Source: an uncultured Gammaproteobacteria bacterium (GTDB lineage Bacteria; Pseudomonadota; Gammaproteobacteria; Pseudomonadales; IMCC2047). From it: a stretch of 64,000 bases of DNA. Under the pieces are notes generated by a model, which saw only the letters and a program-made list of their open reading frames with translations, searched no databases and was not told the DNA's origin. This document shows, in pieces, positions 8,150 through 25,450 of the stretch. Within the stretch, counting starts at the first letter, position 1, and every line of letters begins with the position of its first letter. The stretch spans positions 89,758 to 153,757 of the forward strand of contig CALOEK010000001.1 in the NCBI GenBank assembly GCA_942492345.1, written 5' to 3'. The position numbers and the translations under genes were made by a program.

Positions 8150-8389
8150 ATGTCTGTCCAAAGTGATGTTATTGAAGTGTTAGTTGATACTCTAAGTTTA
8201 CCTGAGGGGCAGCTAGATGAAAGCTCCGTATTGTTAGGGGCTATCCCTGAATTTGATTCGATGGCCGTTGTATCCGTGTTAACGGCACTGGAAGAGCAGT
8301 ATGGCTTTATGGTCGATGATGATGAAATTGATGCCTCAATTTTTGAATCTGTAGCAAGCTTGATTGATTTTGTGAACGCGAAAGTTTAA
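8150..8389 (+). CDS. Acyl carrier protein (exosortase-A-locus type)
   Basis: 79 aa and acidic, with the phosphopantetheine-attachment motif EFDSMAVVSVLTALEE. Confidence 0.85.
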   Translation: MSVQSDVIEVLVDTLSLPEGQLDESSVLLGAIPEFDSMAVVSVLTALEEQYGFMVDDDEIDASIFESVASLIDFVNAKV

Positions 8390-8407
8390 AGAATTAAATC
8401 AAGTATT

Positions 8408-9235
8408 GTGAGTGATGTGATGCAGCCAAACTTTTTAGCTGGTGGTGTAGGAAAGCTTTTTACCCTTTATTTTCCTTCTGAATGTACACAGTGTAAGGGT
8501 GCTATTTTACATGTGCCTGCTTTTGCTGAAGAAATGAATAAGTCTCGGCACATGGTGGTTAAGCAAGCTCGTGAAATGGCCCGAAATGGCCACAGTGTTT
8601 TGATTGTTGATTTATATGGAACTGGCGATAGTGAAGGTGAATTTGCAGAGGCTAGCTGGGATATTTGGGTAGAGGATGTGCTCCTCTTGGTAGATTGGCT
8701 GGTGCAGAATGCCAGTCCGAATATAACACTTTGGGGGCTTCGTCTTGGTGGTTTGTTAGCGGTGGTTTGTGCCCAACAAAATAGTTTCATTCGGAAGCTT
8801 CTGTTATGGCAGCCAGTTATCAGCGGTGAGCAATTTATGCAGCAGTTTTTACGCTTAAGGATTGCAGCCAGTATTATGGGCAATAGTGAAAAGGAAACAG
8901 TAAAATCGCTTAAAGCTATTTTAGAGAAAGGTGAACTACTAGAAGTTGCAGGTTACGAGCTGCCCCCGACATTATTCTCATCAATTGCTAACACAAATAT
9001 GAGTACATTGGATGTGACAGGTTTGAAGAGTGCGGGCTGGTTTGAAGTAAATAGCAGCGCGAAGTCTTTAACCGTACCCAGCCAAAAGTTAGTGGCACAC
9101 TGGCAGGACGACTTCCATCTTCCTGTTACATCTCAAACTGTGGAAGGTAAACAGTTCTGGTCTAATCAGGAAATTGTGTGGGCCGAGAATCTTATTATCC
9201 AAACGAATCTTTTATTGTCAGCCCCAATCGCCTGA
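8408..9235 (+). CDS. Alpha/beta-fold protein, 'hydrolase 2, exosortase A system-associated' type
   Basis: 275 aa with AILHVPAFAEEMNKSRH...LIVDLYGTGDSEGEF. The nucleophile-elbow position reads LWGLRLGGLLA (Arg where Ser is expected). GTG start; an alternative ATG lies at 8420. Confidence 0.75.
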   Translation: MSDVMQPNFLAGGVGKLFTLYFPSECTQCKGAILHVPAFAEEMNKSRHMVVKQAREMARNGHSVLIVDLYGTGDSEGEFAEASWDIWVEDVLLLVDWLVQNASPNITLWGLRLGGLLAVVCAQQNSFIRKLLLWQPVISGEQFMQQFLRLRIAASIMGNSEKETVKSLKAILEKGELLEVAGYELPPTLFSSIANTNMSTLDVTGLKSAGWFEVNSSAKSLTVPSQKLVAHWQDDFHLPVTSQTVEGKQFWSNQEIVWAENLIIQTNLLLSAPIA

Positions 9236-9247
9236 TGAGTCATCAAT

Positions 9248-10138
9248 ATGTCTTATATTGAATCCCCCGTCGTTTTTGCGTGCAATGAAATGCATTTACT
9301 AGGTATTACCCACCATGGTGATCAAGCTGCTCAGCGTGGTGTTGTGATCGTTGTGGGTGGGCCTCAGTACCGTGTTGGTAGCCATCGGCAATTTTTACTG
9401 CTTGCCAGGGGTTTGGCTGAACAGGGTATCCCTGTTTTTCGTTTTGACTGTCGAGGTATGGGGGATGGCGAGGGGAAATTCCCCGGTTTTGAAGCTATCG
9501 ACGATGATATTAGTGCCGCGATCAATGCATTTTGTGAAGAGGTTCCCAGCTTAAAAGAAATTGTTATCTGGGGGCTCTGTGATGGTGCTTCAGCGGCTAG
9601 TTTCTACGCACATAAAGATGAACGAGTTACGGGCTTAATTCTCGTTAATCCCTGGATAAGAACTGAGCAGGGCGAGGCGAAAGCTTATTTGAAACACTAT
9701 TATTTTAGACGTTTAGTAGACAAAGCATTCTGGACCAAGGTGTTTTCTGGGAAGTTTGAATTTAGTTCATCGGTGCGTTCATTATTGGGTATGTGCAAGC
9801 GGATCTTCTTAAGAGTGCCAGAGCCAATATCTGAAAATGATGCTGAAGACGCTTTTACCACCGAGATAAATATAAAAAGTCATCAGTTATCACTACCGGA
9901 ACGTTTTTATCAAGGACTTAAAGCTTTCTCTAATCCCATACTCTTGATTACCAGCGGTAATGATTTGACCGCGGCCGAATTTTTAGATGTGATTAATAGA
10001 GATAAACCCTGGCGAAAATTGTCGAGTGTAGATAGCTTTCATCATGAAACCCTGCCTGAGGCTGATCATACTTTCTCAAAAAGAGAATCTATGGATGAGG
10101 CGATAGCAATAACGTTAACTTGGTTAAAGGCATATTAA
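9248..10138 (+). CDS. Alpha/beta-fold protein, 'hydrolase 1, exosortase A system-associated' type
   Basis: 296 aa with VVIVVGGPQYRVGSHRQFLLLARGLAEQGIPVFRFDCRGMGDGEG. The nucleophile elbow is IWGLCDGASAA (Cys). Candidate Asp is in SGNDLT and candidate His in EADHTFS. Confidence 0.78.
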   Translation: MSYIESPVVFACNEMHLLGITHHGDQAAQRGVVIVVGGPQYRVGSHRQFLLLARGLAEQGIPVFRFDCRGMGDGEGKFPGFEAIDDDISAAINAFCEEVPSLKEIVIWGLCDGASAASFYAHKDERVTGLILVNPWIRTEQGEAKAYLKHYYFRRLVDKAFWTKVFSGKFEFSSSVRSLLGMCKRIFLRVPEPISENDAEDAFTTEINIKSHQLSLPERFYQGLKAFSNPILLITSGNDLTAAEFLDVINRDKPWRKLSSVDSFHHETLPEADHTFSKRESMDEAIAITLTWLKAY

Positions 10139-10156
10139 AAAGGAGTTTCAAAAGAA

Positions 10157-11446
10157 GTGTCAATTCTTGAGCCGATTCTGTGGTGTGTTTTTAGGTTTAT
10201 CAATGTAATTGCAGATTTGAAGCAAAGGGTGCCTCTCAACCCTGAGCCTAATATATATTATCCCAACGCCTATGAATTCGTGTCGGATGACCACCTCTGG
10301 ATTTTTTGTTCAACGATTGGCGAGTTAAATGCCTGCAAGCCTTTAATTCAAGAGATTAGCCAGGATAGAAAGCTGGTTTTGTTGACTGATCGTAATTGTT
10401 ATAAAGAGGCTTACTTGCAACATTTCCCAAATGCAGTTGTGGTCGAATTATCTGGGCAGTCTGCTGAGGGGCGTGTGCTTTTAAAGCAGCTTTCACCGAG
10501 TGAAATCATTGTCTGTGAAATCCCCTGTACTCCTCATGATGCGCCCTGTCGTTTATCTTATGGCCTGCTAAGAGAAGCGAAAAAAAATGGCATTAAAATT
10601 AGTTTGGTCAACGGTTGGCTCTATCATTACCCACCCTCATGCAAAGTAGATGCAATTGAAAGGTGGTTGTTTAACCGATTTTACATCCAATTATTTGACT
10701 TGATGGTTGTGCAAACAGAGTCTGTACGGCAAGAGTTAATTCGATTGGGTGGAGAGGGTGAAAAAATTAAGGTTGGCGGAAACATAAAATTTGATAGTTT
10801 GAGCGACGCTAGCGTTCAGGTAAGAGATGATGTAAGTAAATTGATCTTAACAACATTTACCGCTGCCAAATATCCCGTAATCGTCGCAGGTTGTGTGATT
10901 GATATTTTGGAATTCGAATTACTTTTAGGGGCTTATCTACAGCTTCTAGAAAAGCGTCCAGATGTTCGTCTTGTTCTTGCACCACGGCACCCTGAGAATA
11001 ATGTGCAAATGTTGGATTTACGGAAACTGCTTTCAAATTCAGAGGTGGCTTTTTGTTTTAAATCTGAGCAATCTTGCGAAATTTTGGAACAGAGGCTCAA
11101 TTCGTTACAGGTATTGGTTCTTGATACGATTGGCGAATTAAGAGGGTACTATTCGTGCGGGGATGTTTGTTACGTAGGTCGTGATCATAATATTTTGGAG
11201 CCGCTAGCTTTTGGGAAGCCTGTAGTTGTATCTGGGGAGTGGGAAACAACTTATCCTAGCTACCCTGTTTATGAGGTTACAAAAAAAGAAAACCTTATTC
11301 GTGAAGTTGATAATGTTCAGTTGATGGAGGCTTCTTTTGATGCATTACTGGAAGCAACAGGAGTTGAAGAAAAGATTCTTCGCGCATCTTTGGTTAAATT
11401 AACAGGCTGCAAAGAAAAGACGCTTGGCTTTTTAAAACACTATTAG
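10157..11446 (+). CDS. Kdo-transferase-like (WaaA/KdtA family) glycosyltransferase
   Basis: 429 aa. It matches WaaA landmarks LWIFCSTIGELNACKPLIQEI, LVLAPRHPE and VLDTIGELRGYY. GTG start. Confidence 0.7.
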   Translation: MSILEPILWCVFRFINVIADLKQRVPLNPEPNIYYPNAYEFVSDDHLWIFCSTIGELNACKPLIQEISQDRKLVLLTDRNCYKEAYLQHFPNAVVVELSGQSAEGRVLLKQLSPSEIIVCEIPCTPHDAPCRLSYGLLREAKKNGIKISLVNGWLYHYPPSCKVDAIERWLFNRFYIQLFDLMVVQTESVRQELIRLGGEGEKIKVGGNIKFDSLSDASVQVRDDVSKLILTTFTAAKYPVIVAGCVIDILEFELLLGAYLQLLEKRPDVRLVLAPRHPENNVQMLDLRKLLSNSEVAFCFKSEQSCEILEQRLNSLQVLVLDTIGELRGYYSCGDVCYVGRDHNILEPLAFGKPVVVSGEWETTYPSYPVYEVTKKENLIREVDNVQLMEASFDALLEATGVEEKILRASLVKLTGCKEKTLGFLKHY

Positions 11447-11456
11447 GATAGTTTGG

Positions 11457-12443
11457 ATGAAAACGCTAGAAGTAATAATGCCCTGTTTTAATTCAAAGCC
11501 AGAGTTTTTTAAGGTTGCAGTTGAATCGGTTGATTCAGCACGGACTTCGCTTGCTGTGGTAGGTGTAAAGTTGAATTTATGTATTGTTGATGATGCCTCT
11601 AACAGTGAAAGTACAAAGAAATTTTTATCAAATATAAATAAACAATACTCATGGATAACGGTTCATTACCTACAGGAAAATCATGGGGCATCGGGGGCCA
11701 GAAATTATGCTCTTGAAAATACAGATTCGGAATGGGTTGCCTTTTTGGATTCTGACGATTACTGGTTGTCTGGCGGAATAAACTTGTTATGCGAGCATAT
11801 GCTGAAAGATAACACTATTGAATGGGCTTCAGGTGATTTCTATATTCAACACAGTGGAGGTGATGTTGAAACACAAAGTTTTTATCCTCAAAACCCTTCA
11901 AGGTATCAGTTTCTCGCTGATGCTTATAAAACAGAGAAGCCAATACGATTAATTAGGCCTGTCTTTGAATTTCTTGAAGGTTCTTTATGTTCAATGGGGA
12001 GTTGTGTCATCTCAAAAGCTTTACTTCAACGAGCTGGCTATTTTGATCTGAGTTTGAAGAAAGGAGTTGATACTGAATTATATTGGCGTTTGGCTAAAGA
12101 GTCAGATTTGGTTTTTTTGCCGCAGCCTATTTTTGTATATAGAAGATATGAAGGTACTCTATCTTCGGATGGGCGGCGTATTTCAGATTGGGAACCTGAA
12201 GTTTTAGAAAAAATGTTGTCGGCACCGGAATGGGGCTCTTATACGCTTTATTTGAAGCGAAGGTATATAAGAACATTAATGAATCTAAGTGCTCTTGAGA
12301 GTGAGTCTGGGCATGTACTTCAAGCATTAACCTTTTCTTTAAAGGCTCTTAAATTAAGACCTTATGGCTACAGAGTATGGAAAAACCTGTTTGATAATTT
12401 TGTCATCTTCTTAAAATCAAAGCGCTCTGGGACAGTGGCTTGA
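11457..12443 (+). CDS. Family-2 glycosyltransferase
   Basis: 328 aa with VIMPCFNS, DDASNSES and the DxD motif AFLDSDD. Confidence 0.8.
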   Translation: MKTLEVIMPCFNSKPEFFKVAVESVDSARTSLAVVGVKLNLCIVDDASNSESTKKFLSNINKQYSWITVHYLQENHGASGARNYALENTDSEWVAFLDSDDYWLSGGINLLCEHMLKDNTIEWASGDFYIQHSGGDVETQSFYPQNPSRYQFLADAYKTEKPIRLIRPVFEFLEGSLCSMGSCVISKALLQRAGYFDLSLKKGVDTELYWRLAKESDLVFLPQPIFVYRRYEGTLSSDGRRISDWEPEVLEKMLSAPEWGSYTLYLKRRYIRTLMNLSALESESGHVLQALTFSLKALKLRPYGYRVWKNLFDNFVIFLKSKRSGTVA

Positions 12444-12477
12444 TGGAGTTGTTATTTAAACGTTCAGATGAGTTCCG

Positions 12478-13926
12478 TTAAATATTTGTTGGTTTTCTAG
12501 TTATCTTTTTTATTTCATTTATTAGTAGATAAAGAGTTTCATGCTTTAGCAGTATTGAGGCGGCGATCCATCCAAGTAAGGCTGCGATGGAGACGTAAAT
12601 AATTGAGATGATCATGGGTAAATTGTCAGCTAGTAAATGCTGCGTTAAGGACGCACTAGCGAACACTGCTGTTAAGATGACTAAATTTATTAAATGAATT
12701 TTAATAATGTCTTGCCAACGTACTTTCATCTTGAATAGAAATCTTGGCGTCAAGAATAATAGCCTGGTTACAGTTAATAAGAAAAAAGAGCATACCAAAG
12801 TGTATAGCCCCATCTCTACAAATATTAAGACTAGTGCTACGCGTGTAATGAACTGAAAAAGTATAAAGTTGAAAATAAATTTCACATCTTGGCAAACATG
12901 TAGAATTTTTTCGGCTAAAGGTAAAAAGCTATTACATATCATAAATAGAGCGTAAATACGGACAATTTCCACCGAATTCCCCCATTGGTCTCCATACAAG
13001 GTGAAAATAATTTCTTCCGCCAGAATGTATACAAGTATGTAAAAGGGCCACGAGATGCTAGTAAGTATGTTCATGACTGAGCAAACTTTTTTACTTAGTT
13101 CAGCATCATCGCTTCTGTTTAAACTGGAAATATAAGGTTGGAGTACTGGAGTAAATGCAGTGAGGATAAGCGTTGAAAAAAGGTTGCAGGTGGAAGCAGC
13201 TTTAGAAAAAAATGCCAGATGTTCAGGTGATAGTTGTTTAGCAATAATGAATTCTGAGAAAGTCTCTTGCAACTTGTCGATTATATAAGACCCACTTACA
13301 AGTGAACTGAATTTTGTGATTTCTACGATATTTTTGAAGTTGAATCGATAATTTCCCCAAGATGTATGAGGCATAGTCATAACAACGGTCGTGGCTGTTC
13401 CTACGACAGAAGCTACTGCCAATGATGTGACGCCTCCGCCCATGAAGGCAATTGTCAGCAGTGCCGAAACACGAAGTATGGTGCTGGCGACATCAATGAC
13501 CATAAGCTTGTCAAAGAGCATTTCACGTTTTAAAAGGGATAGAGTAAACGTGCCGAAGGGGATTAGTAGGAAATTGATGGCCAGAATTTTTATTAAAATT
13601 GAAATAGAGTCATTGTTAAAGTAAGAAGCAATAAACGATGAGGAAAAATAGTAACCGAGAGCTATAGTCCAGCAAAGTATAAGCGAAATCGTAAAGCAGC
13701 TTTGTATTTTTGAAGTGGTGAGTTCTTTCTCTTGTACGATGTAAAGAGAAAGCCCGAAATCACGGAGTAGCTGGCCTATAACGATGCTTGCGGCAGCTAG
13801 AGAGTAGATGCCAATTTCTCCGGGCGTCAGAATTCGTGATATAACCATTACCGATATAAAATCAACGAGAAGAGACGTGTATTTTCCAGCAAATGAAAAG
13901 AATAAAGCACGCTTAAAAGTTGCCAA
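12478..13926 (-). CDS. Polysaccharide flippase (Wzx/MOP family)
   Basis: 482 aa, hydrophobic throughout with many predicted helices. The N-terminus FAGKYTSLLVDFISVMVISRILTPGEIGIYS is Wzx-like. The coding sequence is very AT-rich. Confidence 0.8.
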   Translation of the reverse strand: MATFKRALFFSFAGKYTSLLVDFISVMVISRILTPGEIGIYSLAAASIVIGQLLRDFGLSLYIVQEKELTTSKIQSCFTISLILCWTIALGYYFSSSFIASYFNNDSISILIKILAINFLLIPFGTFTLSLLKREMLFDKLMVIDVASTILRVSALLTIAFMGGGVTSLAVASVVGTATTVVMTMPHTSWGNYRFNFKNIVEITKFSSLVSGSYIIDKLQETFSEFIIAKQLSPEHLAFFSKAASTCNLFSTLILTAFTPVLQPYISSLNRSDDAELSKKVCSVMNILTSISWPFYILVYILAEEIIFTLYGDQWGNSVEIVRIYALFMICNSFLPLAEKILHVCQDVKFIFNFILFQFITRVALVLIFVEMGLYTLVCSFFLLTVTRLLFLTPRFLFKMKVRWQDIIKIHLINLVILTAVFASASLTQHLLADNLPMIISIIYVSIAALLGWIAASILLKHETLYLLINEIKKITRKPTNI

Positions 13927-14058
13927 TTAGTTTTCCTGTTCGATTATTAAGTAGTAAGGGCTATTCTTAGCTAGAGTTAGTGAGGTTGGCAGAGGATAGG
14001 TCGGATTACAAACGTAAAAGCTTCTATTCTCCAAGTCAGGGATTATTTGTAATTAATT

Positions 14059-15048
14059 ATGATTAAACAAGTAGATAAAAAAATTATTGGTGTGGGTAAG
14101 GAATCCCTCATGATGGGAGCAAATTCTTTGATGGATTTGTCGCAGGGCTTGGGCAAAGAATATCTCGAAGCTATTGCACTGTTGGCTGGCTGTAAAGGAC
14201 TTATATTAACTACGGGTGTAGGGAAGTCTGGCTATGTGGCTCAAAAGCTTGCTGCAACGCTAACAAGCACAGGAAAACCCTCTTCCTTTTTGTGTCCATC
14301 CAACGCGCTACATGGTGATTTGGGTATAGTCATGCCTGGGAGTGCATTGATTGTTGTTAGTTTTAGTGGTGAAACTCAAGAATTGCTCGCGCTCATGCCA
14401 TCGTTAAGGCAGCGCCAGACGAAAATCATCAGTATCACCGGGTATCCTGATTCTCAGCTTGCAAAGATGGCGACTGTATCCTTAATAGCCAACGTGCATA
14501 AAGAAGCGTGTCCGCTAAACTTGGCGCCTACTACGAGTATTATTGCTGCACTTGGTTTGGCTGATGCTTTGGCTGTTGGACTAATGGTGTTCAGCAATTA
14601 TAAGGCGGAAGAGTTTGCAGTTAATCACCCGGCAGGTAGCTTGGGGCGGAGACTTACAGTCACAGTAGGTGATTTAATGAGTCATGATAATGATGGTTTT
14701 ATTGTCGGTGAGACCGAATCATTTAAGGAAATTCTTGCAGCTATAACTCATTGTAAACTAGGTGCTGTTTGCGTTGGTGATGATAAAAAACGTCTTATAG
14801 GTATTATCACTGACGGGGATATTAGACGGGCTCTCCAGAAATATTCTTTTGTTGATTTAGAAAAAGTGACAGCTGCCGGGTTGATGACTGTCAATCCGAC
14901 CGTAACTTTTAAGAATATGTTGGCGGTTGATGCACTTAATGAAATGGAGTTAAGGAACTCTCAGATATCCGTCTTACCCGTTGTGGATAGAAATCAAACA
15001 GTGCAGGGTATTGTAAGGGTTCATGACATTGTGAGGGCTGGAATTTAG
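14059..15048 (+). CDS. kpsF: Arabinose-5-phosphate isomerase (KpsF/GutQ family)
   Basis: 329 aa. SIS domain (LTTGVGKSGYVAQKLAATLTSTGKPSSFL, SFSGETQE) plus two C-terminal CBS repeats. Confidence 0.85.
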   Translation: MIKQVDKKIIGVGKESLMMGANSLMDLSQGLGKEYLEAIALLAGCKGLILTTGVGKSGYVAQKLAATLTSTGKPSSFLCPSNALHGDLGIVMPGSALIVVSFSGETQELLALMPSLRQRQTKIISITGYPDSQLAKMATVSLIANVHKEACPLNLAPTTSIIAALGLADALAVGLMVFSNYKAEEFAVNHPAGSLGRRLTVTVGDLMSHDNDGFIVGETESFKEILAAITHCKLGAVCVGDDKKRLIGIITDGDIRRALQKYSFVDLEKVTAAGLMTVNPTVTFKNMLAVDALNEMELRNSQISVLPVVDRNQTVQGIVRVHDIVRAGI

Positions 15049-15162
15049 AATAGTATTTATCGCAACGGACTCATTTTGGTTAGCAAATAGTGATGGCTTA
15101 TGATGGTGCTATTACTATTATTACTGGGGACCTTGTTCGCTAAACGCACGCTCCACGGAGCT

Positions 15163-16137
15163 TTAGCTAAATGGTTTTTTTGCGGCAATCGCGAAAATTC
15201 CTATACCTGAATTTTTCCACTTGGCTGCCTCTGCCAGTTTAAGATGTTTACGGATGAGCTGCGCTGATTTGAAAGGCGACTTTATGATTTTTTGTATAAG
15301 TTGAATTCTTGAGGGGCCAGCATAATCGATAGTATTGTTAACATTTGGCCTAAGCACTTTCGAAGAAATTATAAAGTCTGTGAATCCGGCTTTTAACAAT
15401 ATCTTCTTGATCGAGTCTGGTGAGAAATACCATTTGTGATCTAGTTGATACATCCAATGATTGACGCCCCCTTCAGCCCTAGAAGCACTTTTATAGTTGC
15501 CTGTCTCTATTATAAGCCAGCCACCTTTTTTTAGAAGGTGCTTGGCGGTCAAGATTTGTTCGAACGGCTCAGTCATGTGTTCGATAACATCCCACATTGT
15601 TATAACGTCAAAATTAGTGTCATTGGGGATTTTATCAGTGTTTCCTCTGATTGGAATTATCATGGGGTGTTTTTGAAGATTATTAATCTCTAGTGCAGGA
15701 TCGAGTGCGGTTACATGCCAATTATTTTCAGCGGCCACTAATGAAAATACCCCTGAACCCGCACCTATATCTAATAATGAACCGCGTGGTATTGGTAATT
15801 CAGATAAGAATTCATACTCTAATTCAGCGATTTTTCGTTTATAGCTTGGGCTAAAGTATTCTGATACGGTTTGGCCTTTATCTGCGTACGCGGTTTCAAA
15901 ATGTTGAACGCTCTGTTGTTCGTTATGTGAAAAAGGGTATTGCCAGGCAAAAATACAATCGTTGCACTCAATAACATTTATCAGGGATGGACTTGCCGCA
16001 TCAGATGCTTTTGCTTTAAAAAAATGCAATTTATCGGAACCGCATATTAAGCATTTTTTGTCTTGCGGAATAAAGTCGGAGCTGGCCATGTCATTTTCCT
16101 TTGGGGCTGAAGAATCCTTGTTTGCTAAACTGGGCAT
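15163..16137 (-). CDS. Class I SAM-dependent methyltransferase with an N-terminal Cys4 ribbon
   Basis: 324 aa with SAM motif I LLDIGAGSGVFS. The N-terminus carries CLICGS...ECNDC. An alternative start lies at Met17. Confidence 0.8.
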   Translation of the reverse strand: MPSLANKDSSAPKENDMASSDFIPQDKKCLICGSDKLHFFKAKASDAASPSLINVIECNDCIFAWQYPFSHNEQQSVQHFETAYADKGQTVSEYFSPSYKRKIAELEYEFLSELPIPRGSLLDIGAGSGVFSLVAAENNWHVTALDPALEINNLQKHPMIIPIRGNTDKIPNDTNFDVITMWDVIEHMTEPFEQILTAKHLLKKGGWLIIETGNYKSASRAEGGVNHWMYQLDHKWYFSPDSIKKILLKAGFTDFIISSKVLRPNVNNTIDYAGPSRIQLIQKIIKSPFKSAQLIRKHLKLAEAAKWKNSGIGIFAIAAKKPFS

Positions 16138-16320
16138 TGTTTTTGTCGGTGGAAGTTGTAGATGTTATTTTACTAACTTGCAGTTTAATAGAAATTTTTT
16201 TGATATGTTGGTTAGTGATATAACCAGCATTTATTATTTCGGTAGCCTTCTTCTTTGGGGGAGTAGATACCGTAGGTATTATTTTTCATTATCGTAGCGT
16301 TTCAATAAGGATTTTTGTGA

Positions 16321-17247
16321 ATGGCAACAAATAGAACTTTTGCGGTGGTTATACCTACTTATAGGCGCCCTGATTTGTTGAGTAGATTACTTGATAGCCT
16401 TGTTGAAGCGATTCATCCAGTAAGCATGCTTGAGGTGATAGTTGTTGAAAATGGAGACAGTCATGACGCTGAATCCGTGGTTAAATTTTATATAGATAAA
16501 ATAAAACTCAGGTATATATATATTTCTGAACCGAGTGTATCCAAAGCGAGAAATGCGGGAATTAAAGCAACAAATGCCGACCACTATATCTTCTTTGATA
16601 ATGATGTGCGATTGGGGCGTGAAACGCTGGTAGCTTATGACGATGCATTTCAACGAAATAGTAACGGTCATTTTTTTGGTGGTCAGTTACTTATCGATTA
16701 TGAGGATGTTCCATCTCCATGGCTTTTACCATATTTACCTTGTTCGGCTAGAGGCTTTAACCTTGGGCAGGATCAGGAGCTGTCAGAACCAATCCTGCTA
16801 GGTGGAAATTTCTCATTATCTGCCGAGCAAATTAGGCGAGTTGGGTTGTTTGATGAGCAGTGTGCGGTAGGAGAGAACGGTGGTTTTATGGGCGAAGAAA
16901 CGCGTATTCAGCGGGAGTTATTGACTCAGGGTTGCACAGGACTTTATCTGCACGATGCGGTTGTTTGGCATTACGTGCCTAAAGACCGGTGTTCTGCCGA
17001 ATGGATGTTGAAAAGAAGTTATCGGCATGGGCTAACTGAAGCGAGTCAAATATCGCTTCAAAATTATGACGGAAAATTACTTTTTAATATCCCTAGATGG
17101 ATACTAGTTCGATTTTTAATATCACTTTCAGAATGCTGGATTCATCATCCATTTGCAGATGAAAAAACGCGTTTCAAATATCGTAACACGTACAGCATAG
17201 CGAAAGGTATGCTGTATTATTTTCTAGGAAAACATAGGGTTAAATAG
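16321..17247 (+). CDS. Family-2 glycosyltransferase
   Basis: 308 aa with AVVIPTYRRPDLL, VVENGDS and IFFDNDV (DxD). Confidence 0.8.
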   Translation: MATNRTFAVVIPTYRRPDLLSRLLDSLVEAIHPVSMLEVIVVENGDSHDAESVVKFYIDKIKLRYIYISEPSVSKARNAGIKATNADHYIFFDNDVRLGRETLVAYDDAFQRNSNGHFFGGQLLIDYEDVPSPWLLPYLPCSARGFNLGQDQELSEPILLGGNFSLSAEQIRRVGLFDEQCAVGENGGFMGEETRIQRELLTQGCTGLYLHDAVVWHYVPKDRCSAEWMLKRSYRHGLTEASQISLQNYDGKLLFNIPRWILVRFLISLSECWIHHPFADEKTRFKYRNTYSIAKGMLYYFLGKHRVK

Positions 17248-17282
17248 GGCACTAGGTTTGTGGGGGCTATTCAGGGTTTACT

Positions 17283-18302
17283 TCATCCCCCCAACAGTTG
17301 TTTTATAGACTTAACTATTGGTGTATTGTAATAGGTTAAATGATACATAACCCGTTCATCTTCTGTGAGCTTTTTATGCCACTGCATTGATGGACCATAA
17401 AATTCGATGGATTTAAGGCCGGTTTTTGAACAGTGCGCTATGCCGTCTACATGAAGGCTGAAAGCAGGGGAATATCGCTGCCAGGGTTCGGCATAGGTGG
17501 TTTTTAAAATAAAGATGGTGCTGCCGTCATCAATACAAAGATCTGTTGCTACTAACTCTTCATCGAAAAAATAACGCCATATTTGGCATTGTTCGGGCGC
17601 GAAAGCAGACAACATATCCGTGTAATACTTACCCTGGTTGTTGTCGATGTGGATAGCCGTGCCGGTTTCATTTTTCCAGCCTTCACTTTCTAGTTTTCCG
17701 TAATTTACAACGCCAGAGCGAATATCTTCAACGCAAGATTTCACTTCAAAGCGTATTTCTTTACCTTCTTTTTCTAAGCGGCGTTTTGCTTTGCCAACGC
17801 TAGTTCGCACGTTTTTACTTCGAGACTGCCAATAGTTTTCAAAATCTTCGGGGATATCAAGGCGTGCGGTGGTGATGTAATCCAGCGTTGAAAAGTATTT
17901 GTTTTCCTCTGGACGTGGAAGTAGCTGTGGATCTTGCTGGGTAATGCTTATGGTCAGAACCATGCCGGGCAGAGTTTTAGCTAACTTTTTATAGAAGGAG
18001 CTGTCGTGAAAATGGGCCGGTTGGCATAGCCACATACCCAACGGGGCTTGTGAAGGCTGAAAGGTTTGCCACTGCCCAAAGCCTTTCTTTGAAAGAATGC
18101 TTGCTGCGACAAGTTCTTGTTTCTGGTGTGCTAGAGCAATCACCATTTCTTTGTCAGCGAAGTGCTTTATCAACGGGCTAATGAACCGGGGATCAAGTAG
18201 AAGGGTATTAGCTGTATTTTTATTTAGGTTTTGCCATTGACCTGAAATTTCAATGAAGTATTCAATAGGGTGAATTGTCCACTGAAGCGATAGTTCTGCC
18301 AT
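17283..18302 (-). CDS. GNAT-fold acyltransferase, FemAB/CelD/BioF2-like (PEP-CTERM-locus type)
   Basis: 339 aa. Its size and overall pattern resemble the Acetyltransf_6/FemAB-related proteins of XrtA loci. Assignment is by resemblance only. Confidence 0.55.
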   Translation of the reverse strand: MAELSLQWTIHPIEYFIEISGQWQNLNKNTANTLLLDPRFISPLIKHFADKEMVIALAHQKQELVAASILSKKGFGQWQTFQPSQAPLGMWLCQPAHFHDSSFYKKLAKTLPGMVLTISITQQDPQLLPRPEENKYFSTLDYITTARLDIPEDFENYWQSRSKNVRTSVGKAKRRLEKEGKEIRFEVKSCVEDIRSGVVNYGKLESEGWKNETGTAIHIDNNQGKYYTDMLSAFAPEQCQIWRYFFDEELVATDLCIDDGSTIFILKTTYAEPWQRYSPAFSLHVDGIAHCSKTGLKSIEFYGPSMQWHKKLTEDERVMYHLTYYNTPIVKSIKQLLGG

Positions 18303-19675: not shown

Positions 19676-20911
19676 ATGTCTCAAAAGGTTTTAATGATCG
19701 CATATCATTTCCCCCCTGTGGCGGCGAGCAGTGGGTTTTTGCGGACTTTAAAATTTGCTCAACATTTGTCCGGATATGGGGTTGAACCTACTGTGTTGAC
19801 CGTGAAACCAAGTGCTTATGAACAAATGAACCCGGACAATTATAAATTGCTTGATGACTTGAAGGGGGTTGAGTGCCGCCGTTGTTCCGCAAAGGATGGG
19901 GCGAGAGATTTCGCCTGGAGAGGTAAATATCTTAGCTTACTGGCATTTCCTGACCGTTGGGCGAGCTGGATTCCTTTTGGTATTTTTACTGGATTGCGTG
20001 AAATAAAGAAAAATCGTATTAACGTTATTTGGGCAACATATCCGATCGTTTCAGCATTGGTTATTGGTTACTGGTTAAAAAAAATAACTGGGTTGCCATT
20101 AATTTGTGACCTACGGGATCCTATTTGGGAAGAAGAAACCTGGGTAAATACGCGTAAATTTAGGTGGTTAAAAAAATTCGAGCTTAAGCTGTTGACCATA
20201 GCGGACCGAGTTGTCTTTACTTCCCCAGGAACAGTACAAAAATATATGCATCGTTATCCTGGGCTTATCGATGATAAGTGTGAATTGATCACTAATGGTT
20301 ACGATAGTGTGAATTTCACTGTCGTTCCAAAACTTCTGGAAAGTAAAAAGGTATTTCTGCATAGCGGTATTATTCCAGTCTACGAACGTAATCCCGAAAA
20401 TTTCTTTTTGGCTCTTTCAACACTGAAAAAGAAAGGCTTATTACGGGCTGCAAATTATGAATTTCGCTTGCGAGCTTGTGGCTATGCTGATCAATATCAG
20501 CAGCGGACAAAGGAACTTGGTATAGATGATTTGGTTTCTTTCCCTGACGGTGTAGCGTATGAAGACGCGATTGCAGAGATGCAGTCCGTTGATGCGTTAA
20601 TGGTGTTTCAGGATAAAACTTGTAATTGGCAAATACCCGCCAAAGTATTTGAGTATATGCGGGCCGGGCGACCAATTATTGGTTGGGTTGACCCAGGTAG
20701 TGATACAGCAAAGGTGCTTGCAGATTGTAATATGGATGACTATCTTGCCCCCTTAGATGATGCAGAAGCAATTGGAGACGTGCTCTCCCAGTTTATACGT
20801 GAGAATGATTGGCAAAAAAAATGCGAAGATTATGAACAATTTGAAAGAAAAGCGCTCACTAAAAACTTAGCCGATCTGATTTCAGTGTTAGCCAAGACAG
20901 ATCAGTCTTAG
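19676..20911 (+). CDS. GT-B fold (group 1 / GT4-like) glycosyltransferase
   Basis: 411 aa. N-terminus VLMIAYHFPP; C-terminal E-x7-E-type region PAKVFEYMRAGRPIIG. Confidence 0.75.
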   Translation: MSQKVLMIAYHFPPVAASSGFLRTLKFAQHLSGYGVEPTVLTVKPSAYEQMNPDNYKLLDDLKGVECRRCSAKDGARDFAWRGKYLSLLAFPDRWASWIPFGIFTGLREIKKNRINVIWATYPIVSALVIGYWLKKITGLPLICDLRDPIWEEETWVNTRKFRWLKKFELKLLTIADRVVFTSPGTVQKYMHRYPGLIDDKCELITNGYDSVNFTVVPKLLESKKVFLHSGIIPVYERNPENFFLALSTLKKKGLLRAANYEFRLRACGYADQYQQRTKELGIDDLVSFPDGVAYEDAIAEMQSVDALMVFQDKTCNWQIPAKVFEYMRAGRPIIGWVDPGSDTAKVLADCNMDDYLAPLDDAEAIGDVLSQFIRENDWQKKCEDYEQFERKALTKNLADLISVLAKTDQS

Positions 20912-21005: not shown

Positions 21006-22411
21006 TTATGGGCTATTACTATAGGAGGGCGTTTTATCTAGTTGATCTGGGTGCTTATAGACCCAGACACCTGTTTTATGGCTGGATAATCCGACGAATA
21101 CATCTTCTTCTGGAAGATAAATCCACTTACCGTAGACTCTAGCGTCACCTGATTGTGGGCCCTGGATACCCCAATCAAACTCTTTCCAGAGTGCACCTTT
21201 TTTTTCTGATTCTATAGAGTAAATCTTAGATTTTCCGCTCCAAGAAACGATACGCCCTTTACTATCGATAGCCAATGATTTGCCGTGTTGTATTTTTGCC
21301 TCTATTTTTTTGATTAATCGTCCGTTACTTGCATCGAGTCCCAGTAATATTGAGCGATGGAGTGACCATATGACATTTTTTTGGTGGTCATATTGTTTGG
21401 TGCCATCGCCCCAGTCAGCTTGACTACTGAAGAATTTTAATGAGTTTGGTGAAGGGTTGGTTGGATTATATATCGCTGTACGATACTTTGAGCCAAATAC
21501 AATCAATCCGCTTTTTAGCTCAACTGATACAGGATATCCTTTATGGATAGCTGCTTTCTGTAGTTGATCTGAATTAAAGACCCTGCGCCAATTTAAGGGA
21601 AGTAAGCCGTTTGTTGATTCTCCCTCTAGCGGATTAAATTCATACCAACCCTGAGTAATACCGCGTGGGCCAATGACGGTCGAATTTTTTTTATAGATGT
21701 CATTTTTATCTTCAAAACAGGCTCCGTTAGCAGCTATTGAAATGTATAGAAATATGGTCTTTGTAGTATGACTGTAAACTATTCCATCATAAGTGTGAGC
21801 ACTGCTTGGTACTTTGCTCACATCTGGGACCCAGCACAGCATTCGCCAAGGTTTTTCAGGGCGCGCATTGTAATCGACTACGACATATAAATAGTTGAGA
21901 GGCGAAGGATCTGTTAGGCGTTTCCATTCACCACTGTCAAGTTTGAAACGATAGACCTCATTACCACCATAGTCTTTATGACCACCGCCAAAAAAATAGA
22001 ATATTCTTTTTCTTTATCAAAGGCTGCGCCGTTCCATGCGATTAATATGGAGGCAGGCCCTGTCCTCATTCTTGTTTTTTTATCAAGATTTTTGGGCCAT
22101 ACAGAGGAAATAGAAGGGTGTTGTTTTGAGACGGAAATTTCACACCAACCTGCACCTTGACGGGTTAATTTGGTGACGCAGTCTTTTAGGTTATTTCCGT
22201 TAATCTTCGCTGGGAGGGCTGTGTTTGAAATTGCTGCAGGTCTGTAGTTCTGGGTTGGAATCAGGTCGTTTTTTTTATCGATAAGCTGGGTGTCTCCCGC
22301 CGATAAAAAGGTAGGTGAAAAAATCAAAAATAGTGCGGTAATCGAGGTGAATACACGCCTTAAATATAAGCCAAGACCATGAGCAGATACGGTATTTACC
22401 ATATTGGTCAA
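21006..22411 (-). pseudogene. Secreted Kelch/beta-propeller-like protein split by a frame change in a T7 tract
   Basis: ORF 21914-22411 has a signal peptide (ITALFLIFSPTFLSAG) and ends just after ...AWNGAAFDKEKEYSIF. The frame one nt over is open from 22013. It reads ...FFGGGHKDYGGNEVYRFKLDSGEWKRL... and runs straight into ORF 21006-21842. The junction is the A7 run at 21990-21996 (T7 on the coding strand). Confidence 0.8.
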
Positions 22412-22486: not shown

Positions 22487-22524
22487 GGGCTACTTTAGAT
22501 AAAATCGATTATCTAAAGTAGCCC
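22487..22524. repeat. Perfect 16-bp-arm inverted repeat
   Basis: GGGCTACTTTAGATAA-aatcga-TTATCTAAAGTAGCCC. It lies between the decarboxylase stop (22617) and the start of the propeller gene (22411). Confidence 0.85.
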
Positions 22525-22616
22525 ATTTATTATTTAGTCTGAATTTTTTCGGTTGTTATGAAAGGCAGCTTTTTATTGATCCTGATGCGACTATTTCTAA
22601 AGGGTGCTTATGTCGA

Positions 22617-23861
22617 TTAAATAAGTATTTCCTGTGTCATCGGATGACTTAAAAATCGATGCGGGCTGGCTGAAAAGCCATAAGCGCCGGATTGATAGAC
22701 AGCTACTAAATCACCAATTTCTGCTGTGGGTAGTGTCATATTGTTAGCCAAAATATCCAACGGCGTGCAAAGCGGCCCAACTACTGATACCTCTTCGGTT
22801 TCAGCGCTCGCCATTTTGTTGGCTACAGCAACAGGGTAGTTTTTACGGATCACTTGGCCGAAATTTCCTGAGGCTGCTAAGTGATGATGTAAACCTCCAT
22901 CGACAACTAAAAAGGTGTGTCCGCGGGATACTTTTTTATCGATTACTTTGCTGATATACAAACCCGCTTCGCCAACGAGATAGCGGCCCAGCTCCATAAC
23001 AATTTCGGCTTCTGGAAGTTGTTCGCAGACTGCCGGTAGCTTGGCCTGCAGGTTTTCTGCAATTGGCGTTAGATCCATGCGTGATTCGCCAGGGAAGTAG
23101 GGGATACCAAGCCCGCCACCGATGTTCAGTAATTCGACGGGGCTTGGTGCATCTTTGGCAAGACGTATGGCGAGTTCAAAGGTGTTGTCGTGGGCTTCGA
23201 TGATTGCTTCGGATTTTAGGTTTTGTGATCCGCAGAAAATATGAAAGCCACGAAAGTGCAGGCCTTTGGTCGCGCCGATTTCTTTTAATACCTCAGGAAC
23301 ACGTTCAGCGTCGATGCCAAATTGTTTGGGGCCACCGCCCATTTTCATGCCGGAGGCTTTGAGTTCAAAGTCGGGATTGACGCGGATGGCGACGTTTGCC
23401 TGCTTGGATGATTCTGCGCTGATACGGGCAATGCGGTGTAATTCGTTTTCCGATTCCACGTTCAGTGTAATCCCTGCTTTGACAGCGGCTTCAAGTTCCC
23501 AATCACTTTTGCCGGGGCCAGCGAAGCTGATTGTGTCGGGGGCTGTTCCCGAGGCAAGTGCTACTTCAAGTTCACCGCCAGAGGCTACATCCAGGCCATC
23601 CACAAGGCTCGCCATATGGTTGACCACTGCAGGCATGGGGTTGGCTTTCATGGCGTAATGCAGGTGGATTTGTTCCGGCAGCGTGCTGCGTAACTCCTTC
23701 ACCCGTTTTGTCATCAGACTGCTGTCGTAGACGTAAAAGGGCGTGGAGCCAATTTCAGTGGCAATATCGGTGATTGAGCGGCTGCCAACGGTCAGGCAGT
23801 TATCGACAACTGGGAACTGGTTCATGGGTGCATGATGTGGAGCCGGTTTAGCGATACTCAT
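22617..23861 (-). CDS. PLP-dependent decarboxylase (DAP/ornithine decarboxylase fold), exosortase-A-associated type
   Basis: 414 aa with the PLP-lysine motif HYAMKANP, plus NIGGGLGIPY, ELGRYLVGEAG and GPLCTPLD. The start overlaps the ligase stop (ATGA). Confidence 0.85.
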   Translation of the reverse strand: MSIAKPAPHHAPMNQFPVVDNCLTVGSRSITDIATEIGSTPFYVYDSSLMTKRVKELRSTLPEQIHLHYAMKANPMPAVVNHMASLVDGLDVASGGELEVALASGTAPDTISFAGPGKSDWELEAAVKAGITLNVESENELHRIARISAESSKQANVAIRVNPDFELKASGMKMGGGPKQFGIDAERVPEVLKEIGATKGLHFRGFHIFCGSQNLKSEAIIEAHDNTFELAIRLAKDAPSPVELLNIGGGLGIPYFPGESRMDLTPIAENLQAKLPAVCEQLPEAEIVMELGRYLVGEAGLYISKVIDKKVSRGHTFLVVDGGLHHHLAASGNFGQVIRKNYPVAVANKMASAETEEVSVVGPLCTPLDILANNMTLPTAEIGDLVAVYQSGAYGFSASPHRFLSHPMTQEILI

Positions 23862-25450
23862 GAACTTTTTTCCTCAAATAAATCTTGCGGCAGGGCATTT
23901 TTTAGACTATTTCGATCAATTTTACCGTTGGGATTACGGGGCAGGTTGTCATGCCATTCGATGTGATGAGGCACCATAAAGTTGGGTAAATTCTGTTGGC
24001 AATAACGCTGTAACGCTTGGCTATCAGGCTCGCCACTGGCTTCGGCAATGACGACAATGCCCTGACCCAGCAAAGGGTGTGGCAGCCCGAACACGGCTAA
24101 ATCTGTGACCAGACCACTGCTCTGAATTTCCTCTTCTACTTCGCTGGGGCTGACGCGATAACCGGAGGTTTTAATCATGTCATCCTGTCGCGTCATGAAA
24201 TATAGGTAACCGTCTTTGTCTCGTTTGACTTGGTCGCCTGACCAAACCGCGATTTCCTGTAGCGGCAAAGCGCCACTTTTACTGGGAGCGGGTTTGAAAC
24301 GCTCAGCGGTTTTGGCTGCATCATTCCAGTAACCCAGAGCAACTAAGGCACCTCGGTGAACGAGTTCGCCGGGTTCGTCTGCGTCGCACTCCGTGCCATC
24401 GGGTCGTACCACCATTACTTCAGCGTTAGGAATGGCTTTTCCGATTGAACCGGGCCGTTGATCAATTTCATCTGGTGGCAGGTAGGTTGAACGAAAGGCT
24501 TCGGTAAGACCGTACATTAAGAAAATGTCAGTTTCCGGTAGTGTATTTTGTAAGGACTTGATAATGCTGGAGGGCATATGACCACCGGAGTTGGTGATAT
24601 AGCGTAGGTGGGTTTTTGCTTCATCAGGCCATTCTAGGTTGACCAGCTGTTTCCACAGTGGCGGTACTGCTGCTAACCCTGTGATTTGATGTTTAGCTAT
24701 GGCCTTGATGACGTCACGAGGCAACAGATAATCCATGAGAACCACTTGAGCGCCGGTTAAAAACGCAGTGGTGAGCTGGCTGAGGCCGTAGTCGAAACTG
24801 AGTGGTAACACGGCCAGCAGTTTGTCATTGGCGCTGTTATTTAAATAGTTGGCAACGCTCTCAGCACCCGCCACGATGTTGCGATGAGACAGCACGACAC
24901 CTTTGGGTTTGCCGGTGCTGCCGGAGGTATAGAGGATGGCTGCGACATCGGCATCAATGGAGGTTTGTTTTGGTGCTGTTGAATTGGAATGATTTTCCAG
25001 CAAACGTTGCCAATCGTGAATTCGAATATTGCCGAGTTGTATTTCGCTTTTCGCCTCGTTACTGAAAATGACTTGGCTGAGGTCCGGGCATTCAAGGAGT
25101 GTTTCGCTCAGTAACTTGGCGCGCTCTGCAGAAGTGATCAACACTTTAGCATTACAGTCTTTGAGAATGTGGCCAACCTGCTTGGCTTTTAAAACCGGGT
25201 TGACGGGTACGAACACACAATCAGCAAGGCTGCTGCCAAACAGGGTAATGACGGTTTCAAACTGTTTGGGTAAATAAACAGCAATGCGATCGCCGCGTTG
25301 ACAGTTCAGCGATTTCAGGGCGGAAGCGAAGCGGCATAGTTGACTCCCCAGCTCCTGATAGCTCATGGTTTCGGATTTGAAAATCAGGGCTGTTTGTTCC
25401 GGCCTGGAGAGTACGTTTTGTTGAATACCGCTGTGTACAAAGCTCGTCAT
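23858..25450 (-). CDS. AMP-forming acyl-CoA/acyl-ACP ligase, exosortase-A-associated type
   Basis: 530 aa with adenylation motifs [53 protein letters not shown] and PRNPNGKIDR. Confidence 0.88.
   Translation of the reverse strand: MTSFVHSGIQQNVLSRPEQTALIFKSETMSYQELGSQLCRFASALKSLNCQRGDRIAVYLPKQFETVITLFGSSLADCVFVPVNPVLKAKQVGHILKDCNAKVLITSAERAKLLSETLLECPDLSQVIFSNEAKSEIQLGNIRIHDWQRLLENHSNSTAPKQTSIDADVAAILYTSGSTGKPKGVVLSHRNIVAGAESVANYLNNSANDKLLAVLPLSFDYGLSQLTTAFLTGAQVVLMDYLLPRDVIKAIAKHQITGLAAVPPLWKQLVNLEWPDEAKTHLRYITNSGGHMPSSIIKSLQNTLPETDIFLMYGLTEAFRSTYLPPDEIDQRPGSIGKAIPNAEVMVVRPDGTECDADEPGELVHRGALVALGYWNDAAKTAERFKPAPSKSGALPLQEIAVWSGDQVKRDKDGYLYFMTRQDDMIKTSGYRVSPSEVEEEIQSSGLVTDLAVFGLPHPLLGQGIVVIAEASGEPDSQALQRYCQQNLPNFMVPHHIEWHDNLPRNPNGKIDRNSLKNALPQDLFEEKSS

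Follow-up and report, generated by a model that had tools for sequence, protein, structure and literature searches.

Two opposing gene units around an exchangeable polysaccharide cassette in an uncultured gammaproteobacterium, and a proposed route of decarboxylation on a carrier protein

In the pathways of BtrJ/BtrI/BtrK, CtaD/CtaE/CtaF and FlvN/FlvL/FlvO, glutamate or aspartate is adenylated and joined to a standalone acyl carrier protein (ACP) through its side-chain carboxyl, and a pyridoxal 5'-phosphate (PLP) enzyme then removes the alpha-carboxyl to give a gamma-aminobutyryl- or beta-alanyl-ACP (PMC11350588). In the vicenistatin pathway (VinN/VinL/VinO), formation of the thioester is needed before the decarboxylation (PMC11284099). 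Here, a stretch of 64 kb from an uncultured gammaproteobacterium (the window, whose coordinates are used throughout) was analyzed, in which a standalone ACP, two alpha/beta-fold proteins catalogued as hydrolase 2 and hydrolase 1, an AMP-forming ligase and a PLP-dependent decarboxylase are encoded within a polysaccharide locus. The reading that we favor, at somewhat better than an even chance, is that this module loads an acidic amino acid on the ACP, decarboxylates it there and transfers the aminoacyl group to polysaccharide by means of hydrolase 1, the genes being laid out as two units around an exchangeable cassette.

With BtrI/BtrJ/BtrK, the enzymes of the butirosin side chain, the locus shares a standalone carrier, and the side-chain loading of an acidic amino acid followed by the action of a fold-type III PLP decarboxylase on the carrier (PMC11350588) would take place here as well. 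The Btr genes, however, belong to a Bacillus aminoglycoside antibiotic cluster, whereas the window holds a Gram-negative polysaccharide locus. Moreover, BtrJ is an ATP-grasp enzyme and not an adenylation-domain enzyme, which sets it apart from the window ligase, and the downstream enzymes BtrH and BtrG are not known to be alpha/beta hydrolases. In the VinN/VinL/VinO and FlvN/FlvL/FlvO systems, which make beta-amino-acid starters of macrolactams, an adenylation-type enzyme loads 3-methylaspartate or aspartate on a standalone ACP and PLP-dependent decarboxylation occurs there (PMC11284099). Nevertheless, a second aminoacylation, a malonyl-transferase-type acyltransferase and a polyketide synthase follow in those systems, none of which is present at the window locus, where a Cys-type alpha/beta hydrolase and its apparently dead paralogue stand among glycan genes. 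A further parallel is the D-alanylation of teichoic acids, in which an adenylation enzyme (DltA) loads an amino acid on a small carrier (DltC), from which it goes to a cell-surface polymer; the same passage from a small dedicated carrier to a surface polymer is proposed for the window. The Dlt system differs in that it has no decarboxylase, makes the transfer outside the membrane with an MBOAT protein and DltD, and is Gram-positive.

The five open reading frames (ORFs) were reproduced by the ORF list at the positions given in a preliminary description of the sequence:

8150..8389, plus strand: standalone carrier protein (ACP) of 79 aa, with the serine of FDSM (Pfam PP-binding)
8408..9235, plus strand: hydrolase 2, alpha/beta fold, Arg112 in place of the nucleophile (TIGR03101)
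9248..10138, plus strand: hydrolase 1, alpha/beta fold, with Cys111-Asp239-His274 (TIGR03100)
22617..23861, minus strand: BtrK-type PLP-dependent decarboxylase (TIGR03099)
23858..25450, minus strand: standalone adenylation enzyme, annotated as acyl-CoA ligase (TIGR03098)

The separation of about 12 kb that had been described between the two blocks amounted to 12,478 bp from the end of hydrolase 1 to the decarboxylase, and the ATGA coupling of the ligase and decarboxylase genes was seen as a 4-nt overlap. The family numbers given in the preliminary description, TIGR03098-TIGR03101, were also right, four of the proteins clearing the curated NCBIfam cutoffs. Hydrolase 2 scored 274.6 bits on TIGR03101 (cutoff 202.75) and hydrolase 1, encoded after a gap of 12 bp, 335.2 bits on TIGR03100 (cutoff 168.45), while the ligase reached 771.8 bits on TIGR03098 (cutoff 592.35). 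The decarboxylase scored 623.9 bits on TIGR03099 (cutoff 478.45) and 278.4 bits on the lysA model, which is under that model's own cutoff of 297.9. The ACP barely passed Pfam PP-binding (21.5 bits against 20.8) and matched no exosortase-specific NCBIfam model. The window locus carries a true representative of the catalogued set of ACP, hydrolase 2, hydrolase 1, ligase and decarboxylase.

To place these genes in other genomes, hydrolase 1 was aligned with 18 relatives and the alignment served to retrieve 80 loci, all from different species and with flanks of at most 10 kb, onto which all five window proteins were mapped; a locus with no match within that flank gives no actual distance. ACP, hydrolase 2 and hydrolase 1 (the trio) were found whole, in the same order and on one strand, with the ACP gene first, in 70 of the 74 loci with enough upstream sequence, and across the 80 loci the ACP gene lay directly upstream of hydrolase 2. 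The ligase and decarboxylase genes (the pair) were tightly spaced as well, at -3 to 95 bp in most loci having both. When the 51 loci flanked by 9 kb or more on each side were considered, the pair was in range in 19, one of its two genes in 2 and neither in 30. Opposite strands were used by trio and pair in 17 of those 19 loci (10 with the pair divergent and upstream, 7 with it convergent and downstream), and the same strand in 2. The convergent gap was 10 bp in locus L068 and 34 bp in L064, and went up to 4.6 kb in L056. A contig of 526,106 bp was listed in Plasticicumulans both for the trio locus (L029) and for P0216, the best decarboxylase match, yet the two lie more than 10 kb apart.

The set is therefore organized as two transcription units, normally separate and usually on opposite strands. 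The split at the window locus had been taken for a departure from a contiguous module. This did not hold, as the synteny comparison over 80 genomes gave no single co-directional five-gene operon (0 of 80 loci), the units being separate, with opposite strands in most cases and more than 10 kb between them in many; a contiguous operon as the ancestral state was rejected on the same count. Two blocks on opposite strands are the norm of the family, and only the distance of 12.5 kb is largish. No ACP gene was called within 10 kb of the pair in a second Plasticicumulans locus, L089. Since the ACP gene of the surveyed loci stands with hydrolase 2 and none was called beside the L089 pair, the ACP is, by inference, the functional link between the two blocks.

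Some loci carried other genes of related types. In Rhodospirillales (L019:2639-8557), divergent ligase- and decarboxylase-like genes of 37% identity lie near the trio, and in Thioalkalivibrio (L030, L073 and L081) a distant AMP-ligase (24-26% identity) is encoded 2-3 kb downstream of hydrolase 1; the ligase-like genes of both groups may be alternative loading enzymes. Directly upstream of the Plasticicumulans pair, and far from the trio, a FeeM / Acetyltransf_5 gene of the N-acyl amino acid synthase family was observed (L089:7429-8280).

The best solved relative of the decarboxylase was BtrK (7ru7, 2j66), deposited as L-glutamyl-[BtrI acyl-carrier-protein] decarboxylase, with 270 bits, an E value of about 1e-79 and 38% identity over 379 residues. 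The next-best solved entry, named "probable diaminopimelate decarboxylase", scored 183 bits, and the E. coli-type LysA (1knw) 79. Conversely, when residues 25-414 of BtrK were rebuilt from the alignment, TIGR03099 was the top NCBIfam family (379 bits, against 265 for lysA). BtrK and TIGR03099 are thus reciprocal best matches, ahead of the diaminopimelate (DAP), ornithine and lysine decarboxylases in the same searches. Furthermore, the motif GPLCTPLD of the window protein resembles GPLCTPED of BtrK, in a place where LysA enzymes presumably have CESGD. The decarboxylase is predicted from these relationships to act on a carrier-tethered amino acid.

The best solved relatives of the ligase were adenylation domains of non-ribosomal peptide synthetases and enzymes that load carrier proteins: the second adenylation domain of LgrA (260 bits), 3wvn and 3wv4 (185 bits), which we take to be VinN, a proline-carrier-protein ligase (157 bits) and beta-aminoacyl-ACP synthetases (149 bits). 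On the amino-acid adenylation model TIGR01733 the ligase scored 274.8 bits, under the cutoff of 317.4. An alignment of 25 ligase sequences (that of the window and 24 orthologues) to GrsA-PheA was made with a PheA sequence that reproduces the published code DAWTIAAICK. The resulting specificity code, D-Y-S-A-T-S-M-(gap)-K, was identical in 18 of the 25 sequences. Both the Asp that binds the amino group (D220) and the Lys (K510) are conserved; they correspond to Asp235 and Lys517. The pocket also has an invariant Arg320, which belongs to TEAFRST at the 330/331 region. No assignable substrate specificity was matched by the code DYSATSM--K. By its relatives and these residues, the ligase looks like an amino-acid adenylation enzyme, and "acyl-CoA ligase" is probably a misleading name for it.

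In the ACP, whose best solved relative was 2lki_A (64.7 bits), the attachment serine lies in FDSM, and DSMAV is kept in at least 95% of 72 orthologues. Hydrolase 1 has the triad of catalytically competent alpha/beta hydrolases, with a Cys and not a Ser as nucleophile: Cys111 (in GLCD), Asp239 and His274 (in HTFS) are kept in at least 95% of 81 orthologues, and the Cys aligned on the catalytic Ser of solved hydrolases. In an AlphaFold (AF2) model (pLDDT 82), each of the triad residues comes after a strand (104-110, 231-236 and 264-269), at the position that is canonical for it. A fold search with hydrolase 1 returned generic esterases, lipases and thioesterases, and no specific functional analogue. 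Hydrolase 1 is predicted to be an acyl-transfer enzyme, on which the group would be taken as a thioester and then passed on. Hydrolase 2, on the other hand, lacks the nucleophile. It has GLRLGG, with Arg112 kept in at least 95% of 75 orthologues and no invariant His; the Arg aligned on the Ser of GLSLGG/GLSMGG in solved serine hydrolases, and in a profile-profile alignment (hhalign, 97.8% probability) it sits on Cys111 of hydrolase 1. Hydrolase 2 is therefore best described as a predicted non-catalytic partner, for which the name "hydrolase 2" is probably misleading.

Analogies can be drawn for both proteins. The polyhydroxyalkanoate (PHA) synthase PhaC is an alpha/beta acyl-transfer enzyme with a Cys nucleophile, as would be hydrolase 1 with its Cys-Asp-His on an alpha/beta fold, and ABHD5 is a pseudo-hydrolase that, like hydrolase 2, keeps the fold without the nucleophile. 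Nevertheless, no sequence relation of PhaC or ABHD5 to hydrolases 1 and 2 was detectable in any search, and the resemblance is one of principle only.

The route proposed from these data would start with the adenylation of an acidic amino acid by the ligase and its loading on the standalone ACP through the side-chain carboxyl. The best guess at this amino acid is aspartate, since Asp-type substrates are used by VinN and FlvN, the precedents of the adenylation type; glutamate, by analogy with BtrK, comes second. The BtrK-like PLP decarboxylase would then strip the free alpha-carboxyl on the carrier, which would leave a beta-alanyl- or gamma-aminobutyryl-type thioester. In the next step, hydrolase 1 would take the aminoacyl group on Cys111 and hand it on to an acceptor in the cytoplasm, for which an amino sugar or a hydroxyl of the polysaccharide repeat unit is the likeliest candidate. 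Hydrolase 2, with its invariant Arg and no nucleophile, would assist without catalysis, for instance as a docking site for the carrier or the substrate. N-terminal signal sequences are absent from all five proteins, as read from their sequences, so the acceptor should be cytoplasmic, which points to a nucleotide-sugar or a lipid-linked repeat unit and away from exported proteins.

The polysaccharide locus spans about 1.7-32.5 kb of the window and is flanked by a TonB-dependent receptor and tesA/ybbA/ybbP. To the right of it, ordinary gammaproteobacterial housekeeping genes are encoded (acs, mnmC, nth, rsxABCDGE, metG, apbC, dcd, purN and hda). Besides the trio and the pair, the locus holds the following features:

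3187..4170, minus strand: polysaccharide deacetylase (Pfam Polysacc_deac_1, 91 bits)
4151..5971, minus strand: asparagine-synthase-like amidotransferase (Pfam Asn_synthase, 254 bits)
5998..6720, minus strand: small TPR protein (Pfam TPR families)
6810..8033, minus strand: DegT/DnrJ/EryC1-type sugar aminotransferase, divergent from the ACP gene (Pfam PF01041, 127.5 bits)
10157..17247, mixed strands: variable glycan cassette (family scans)
10157-11446, plus strand: cassette member, GT30-like glycosyltransferase (GT) of the 3-deoxy-D-manno-octulosonic acid (Kdo) transferase type
11457-12443, plus strand: cassette member, GT2
12478-13926, minus strand: cassette member, MOP flippase
14059-15048, plus strand: cassette member, KpsF/KdsD
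15163-16137, minus strand: cassette member, methyltransferase
16321-17247, plus strand: cassette member, GT2
17283..18302, minus strand: Acetyltransf_6 (FemAB-like GNAT) protein (Pfam PF13480, 64.9 bits)
19676..20911, plus strand: GT4-type glycosyltransferase (Pfam Glyco_transf_4, Glycos_transf_1)
21006..22411, minus strand: gene of about 455 aa, split into ORFs 21914-22411 and 21006-21842, recognized by its match to the 454/455-aa gene of relatives
25518-27941, minus strand: heparinase II/III-like protein, right-hand framework (family scans)
28051-28419, plus strand: DAGK_prokar kinase, right-hand framework (family scans)
28382-29188, plus strand: trypsin-like protease, right-hand framework (family scans)

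The proposal that variable glycan genes sit in a conserved frame was supported when contigs of relatives with a decarboxylase 72-91% identical to that of the window were read and protein identities tabulated: these relatives keep the flanks and carry different cassettes of about 7-12 kb between the blocks. L003 and L087/88 have the left and right frameworks in common with the window at 70-85% identity. In L003, the place of 10157-17247 is taken by a different set of about 7 kb, composed of a flippase, a GT2, a TylF-type methyltransferase, a GT1, a GT4 and an Acyl_transf_3 gene, to the right of which the Acetyltransf_6, GT4 and 455-aa genes are kept (58-76%). Apart from that flippase, which is 30% identical, the window cassette had no counterpart in the closest relatives. 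The Acetyltransf_6 protein itself is 75-76% identical in L003 and L087. Furthermore, the gap measures 8.1 kb in L090, with Antibiotic_NAT, FkbH, second ACP, MaoC/KR and methyltransferase genes, and 7.1 kb in L091, where insertion sequence (IS) elements of the IS21 (IstB and integrase) and Transposase_mut types (L091:13290-16934) lie between the decarboxylase and trio sides, which suggests one route of cassette turnover. In L090, the stretch 11283-15536 (Antibiotic_NAT, FkbH-like, second carrier protein and MaoC/KR genes) resembles a second carrier-protein-based tailoring route at the same position. In Sedimenticola (L077), the gap holds only the GT4 and the 455-aa gene.

In L077, L040, L056, L085, L090 and L091, the GT4 gene comes immediately after hydrolase 1. 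The simplest reading is that the window GT4 (19676-20911) was displaced from this usual spot by the cassette, so that the variable cassette of about 7 kb, the Acetyltransf_6 gene and one ORF now sit between hydrolase 1 and its usual neighbor. The spacings of 18, 12, 18 and 10 bp show the trio running on into the first two GT genes (10157-12443). A promoter and terminator scan gave counts no better than chance. The heparinase-like, kinase and protease genes of the right-hand framework (25518-29188) are kept beside the ligase in lineage relatives, and in L015, L039 and L052 a heparinase-like gene comes directly after hydrolase 1. The histories of the two blocks are discordant among close relatives, to judge from protein identities: in L085 and L086, the ligase and decarboxylase are 87-90% identical to those of the window, and hydrolases 1 and 2 only 50% and 43%, with the trio beyond TonB-receptor and GSDH genes, on the other side. 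Hence, the trio allele would have been replaced or moved, the pair staying with the backbone. The gammaproteobacterial lineage of the window has the two units facing one another, and the polysaccharide cassette that separates them is swapped among close relatives.

The intervening genes had been described as very AT-rich glycosyltransferase, flippase and Kdo genes, and the points on AT content and on Kdo were found to be correct in part. The GC content is indeed low between the blocks, but the low values (0.40-0.44) extend from about 1.7 to 22.4 kb and take in the whole trio together with the genes on the left of it. The ligase and decarboxylase genes, at 0.50, are the only ones of the five that match the genome backbone (0.495). 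An AT-rich island made up of inserted genes was rejected as an explanation, as the trio and the left framework are low in GC too. With regard to the Kdo genes, the KpsF/KdsD isomerase passes TIGR00393, and the other gene encodes a GT with a Kdo-transferase N-terminal domain (Pfam PF04413, 46 bits) that falls under every KdtA equivalog cutoff.

At the boundary in GC content, a perfect inverted repeat with a 17-bp stem was observed at 22486-22525, in the 205-bp gap past the decarboxylase stop codon. Because a T-run follows it on the plus strand only, the repeat does not qualify as a canonical terminator of the decarboxylase gene. The hairpin was also considered as a recombination boundary and rejected, exact copies being confined to same-strain contigs, with none at other junctions or in relatives. 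The split gene of about 455 aa next to it has a hydrophobic N-terminus and a weak Kelch-like match. Both of its ORFs align to successive parts of one 454/455-aa gene in L085-L088 and L077, and relatives keep this gene directly downstream of the decarboxylase. Compared with the same-strain contig L002, which has an extra A near 22010 and reads through, the window lacks 1 nt of an A-run. The split is either an assembly error or a homopolymer frameshift. A same-strain contig from the Logan assembly, L004, was compared with 9248-20911, and the hydrolase 1, Kdo-transferase-like GT, flippase and GT4 genes were fragmented there and intact in the window. Taken together, the fragments of L004 and the frameshift of the window suggest that both assemblies have indel errors in this AT-rich region.

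All ORFs of the 80 loci were then clustered, the cluster representatives scanned and the window proteins mapped, which revealed several recurrent partners. The small TPR protein was the commonest neighbor of the trio; it was found in 35-37 of the 80 loci, as a rule immediately past hydrolase 1. A GT4-like ORF cluster was present in 33. The DegT-type aminotransferase was found in 17-19 loci, often directly upstream of the ACP gene, and an Acetyltransf_6 protein stood beside DegT and ACP in 16. An Asn-synthase-like amidotransferase, under the TIGR03108 cutoff like that of the window, lay near the trio or the pair in 17-18 loci, and a deacetylase within 10 kb of the trio in 10. In Oxalobacteraceae, the AsnB-like, decarboxylase and ligase genes are on one strand, and DegT, Acetyltransf_6, ACP, hydrolase 2, hydrolase 1 and TPR genes on the other; the window has every gene of this layout, but scattered. 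As judged from these gene neighborhoods, the conserved set exceeds five genes and forms part of a wider ten-gene association.

Additionally, the relation to the XrtA/PEP-CTERM exopolysaccharide loci was examined, these being the source of the names of families TIGR03098-03101, which four window proteins pass. HprK-related kinase A is also present in the window: at 30197-32459, on the plus strand, three genes encode a 78-aa ORF, an HprK-related kinase A (TIGR04352, 415.7 bits) and an NTP_transf_5 nucleotidyltransferase. The last two were found together beside the trio in 7 of the 80 loci and in lineage relatives. In contrast, no exosortase or other curated marker of the XrtA system was found among the window ORFs scanned, which took in every ORF of exosortase-coding length. 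PrsK, PrsR, PrsT, EpsB_2 and the O-ligase-like protein were likewise missing among these ORFs, and a regular-expression scan of ORF C-termini over the 64 kb gave no PEP-CTERM-like tail. XrtA was not found in the gene listings of lineage relatives either. The deacetylase (3187..4170) is not of the curated XrtA-system type (TIGR03006, 27 bits against a cutoff of 276), and the amidotransferase (4151..5971), with 296 bits on TIGR03108 against a cutoff of 817, is a paralogue distinct from that of the XrtA system. Among the other genomes, PrsK, PrsR, PrsT, EpsB_2 or an O-ligase-like protein was found within 10 kb of the trio in 31 of 80. A role of the product in modifying sorted proteins, which had been suggested, became less likely, as the five proteins have no signal sequences and neither a PEP-CTERM substrate nor an exosortase was found nearby. 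The five families had been presented as an established co-occurring set; no published paper establishing this was found in the literature searched, and the claim rests on the curated family names. The founding PEP-CTERM paper makes no mention of families TIGR03098-03101, and no paper on the chemistry or product of the module was found in the searchable literature.

Outside the polysaccharide locus, a 649-aa ketoacyl-synthase-like protein is encoded at 40567-42516 on the plus strand, well under the FabF cutoffs and with its ketoacyl-synthase domains starting at about residue 200. Its gene is divergent from that of an AraC/FtrA-type regulator (39473-40462, minus strand).

Other chemistries have to be weighed against the proposed route. 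In the one that follows the preliminary description, the ligase loads a fatty or other carboxylic acid on the ACP, a free amino acid is decarboxylated to an amine, and both are condensed by the alpha/beta-fold proteins, giving an N-acyl amine or a lipid-like compound that modifies the polysaccharide or sorted proteins. The ligase does score on long-chain fatty-acid CoA ligase models, although below their cutoffs (NF004837, 330 bits against 476), FadD5 is among its solved relatives (171 bits), and the FeeM-type gene upstream of the Plasticicumulans pair would suit an N-acyl product. This scheme nevertheless fits the closest characterized relatives poorly and appears quite unlikely to us, given the reciprocal match of the decarboxylase with BtrK, ahead of the DAP, ornithine and lysine decarboxylases, the amino-group-binding Asp and the top scores of the ligase to amino-acid adenylation domains, the missing nucleophile of hydrolase 2, and a window in which neither a PEP-CTERM-like tail nor an exosortase was found. 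Another candidate substrate is meso-diaminopimelate, attached by the ligase through the alpha-carboxyl of its L center and decarboxylated at the distal D center to give lysyl-ACP. The 278 bits of the decarboxylase on the lysA model are in line with it, and so are the small specificity residues of the ligase, which suggest a long pocket where the invariant Arg320 could bind the distal carboxylate. It is a very improbable solution all the same: the lysA score is under the cutoff of 297.9, BtrK is much closer than any DAP decarboxylase, the motif GPLCTPLD is as in BtrK and not the CESGD of LysA enzymes, and direct loading of lysine would presumably be simpler.

A different question is which protein carries out the last step. 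With the same loading and decarboxylation on the carrier, the Acetyltransf_6 protein could move the aminoacyl group to an amino sugar made by the DegT protein, and hydrolases 1 and 2 would then be an editing or releasing thioesterase that clears a mis-loaded carrier or frees the amino acid. Homologues of Acetyltransf_6 and DegT lie immediately upstream of the ACP gene in 16-19 of the 80 loci, Oxalobacteraceae have the order DegT-GNAT-ACP-hydrolase 2-hydrolase 1, and the thioesterases DcsB and GrgF and the amidohydrolase VinJ were among the results of the fold search with hydrolase 1. The trio, however, is far more constant (70 of 74) than this association (16 of 80), the GNAT gene of the window is 7 kb from the ACP gene, and an invariant Cys nucleophile with a dedicated dead paralogue would be unusual for a simple editing thioesterase. 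On balance, we judge this arrangement unlikely.

Transfer by hydrolase 1 after decarboxylation on the carrier is thus the route retained, and several points speak against it. The sequences establish the families, the gene order, the relationships between the proteins and the residues that are conserved, and from these the substrate, the decarboxylation on the carrier, the transfer and the acceptor are deduced. The relation to BtrK is one of 38% sequence identity, at which the substrate could be tethered or free, and the single best solved relative of the ligase is the second adenylation domain of LgrA. This domain presumably activates glycine, in which there is nothing to decarboxylate. As the fold search with hydrolase 1 was generic, transfer rather than hydrolysis is deduced from the Cys alone, and the true transferase could be the Acetyltransf_6 protein, which accompanies the ACP in 16 loci. 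Finally, the adenylation-type precedents come from Gram-positive antibiotic pathways and not from polysaccharide loci.

The locus belongs to a known and catalogued set that is functionally uncharacterized. Three aspects appear to be absent from the literature searched, namely the reciprocal link to BtrK, the Cys- and Arg-type natures that the sequences indicate for the two "hydrolases", and the ten-gene association. A bolder interpretation, which we offer tentatively and consider doubtful, is that the module would be a polysaccharide-tailoring version of antibiotic-type decarboxylation on the carrier, in which the Cys alpha/beta enzyme and its Arg-bearing dead paralogue would constitute an undescribed aminoacyl transferase that puts a cationic aminoacyl group on exopolysaccharide. 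In a more extreme version still, the Cys enzyme would oligomerize aminoacyl units in the way that PHA synthase builds polyesters. The module would not depend on exosortase, given that none was found in the 64 kb.

Hydrolase 1 had more than 7,000 relatives in the searches made and the decarboxylase at least 8,000, and the four curated families are widespread in environmental Proteobacteria, including nitrifiers, methanotrophs and floc formers of activated sludge. For genome annotation, the genes are to be read as two units and not as one operon, and an exosortase need not be encoded near the set. Through its link to chemistry of the BtrK and VinO type, a module of "function unknown" acquires a specific hypothesis. 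If it is true, a positively charged aminoacyl decoration would alter the charge and the adhesion of biofilm and floc polysaccharides.

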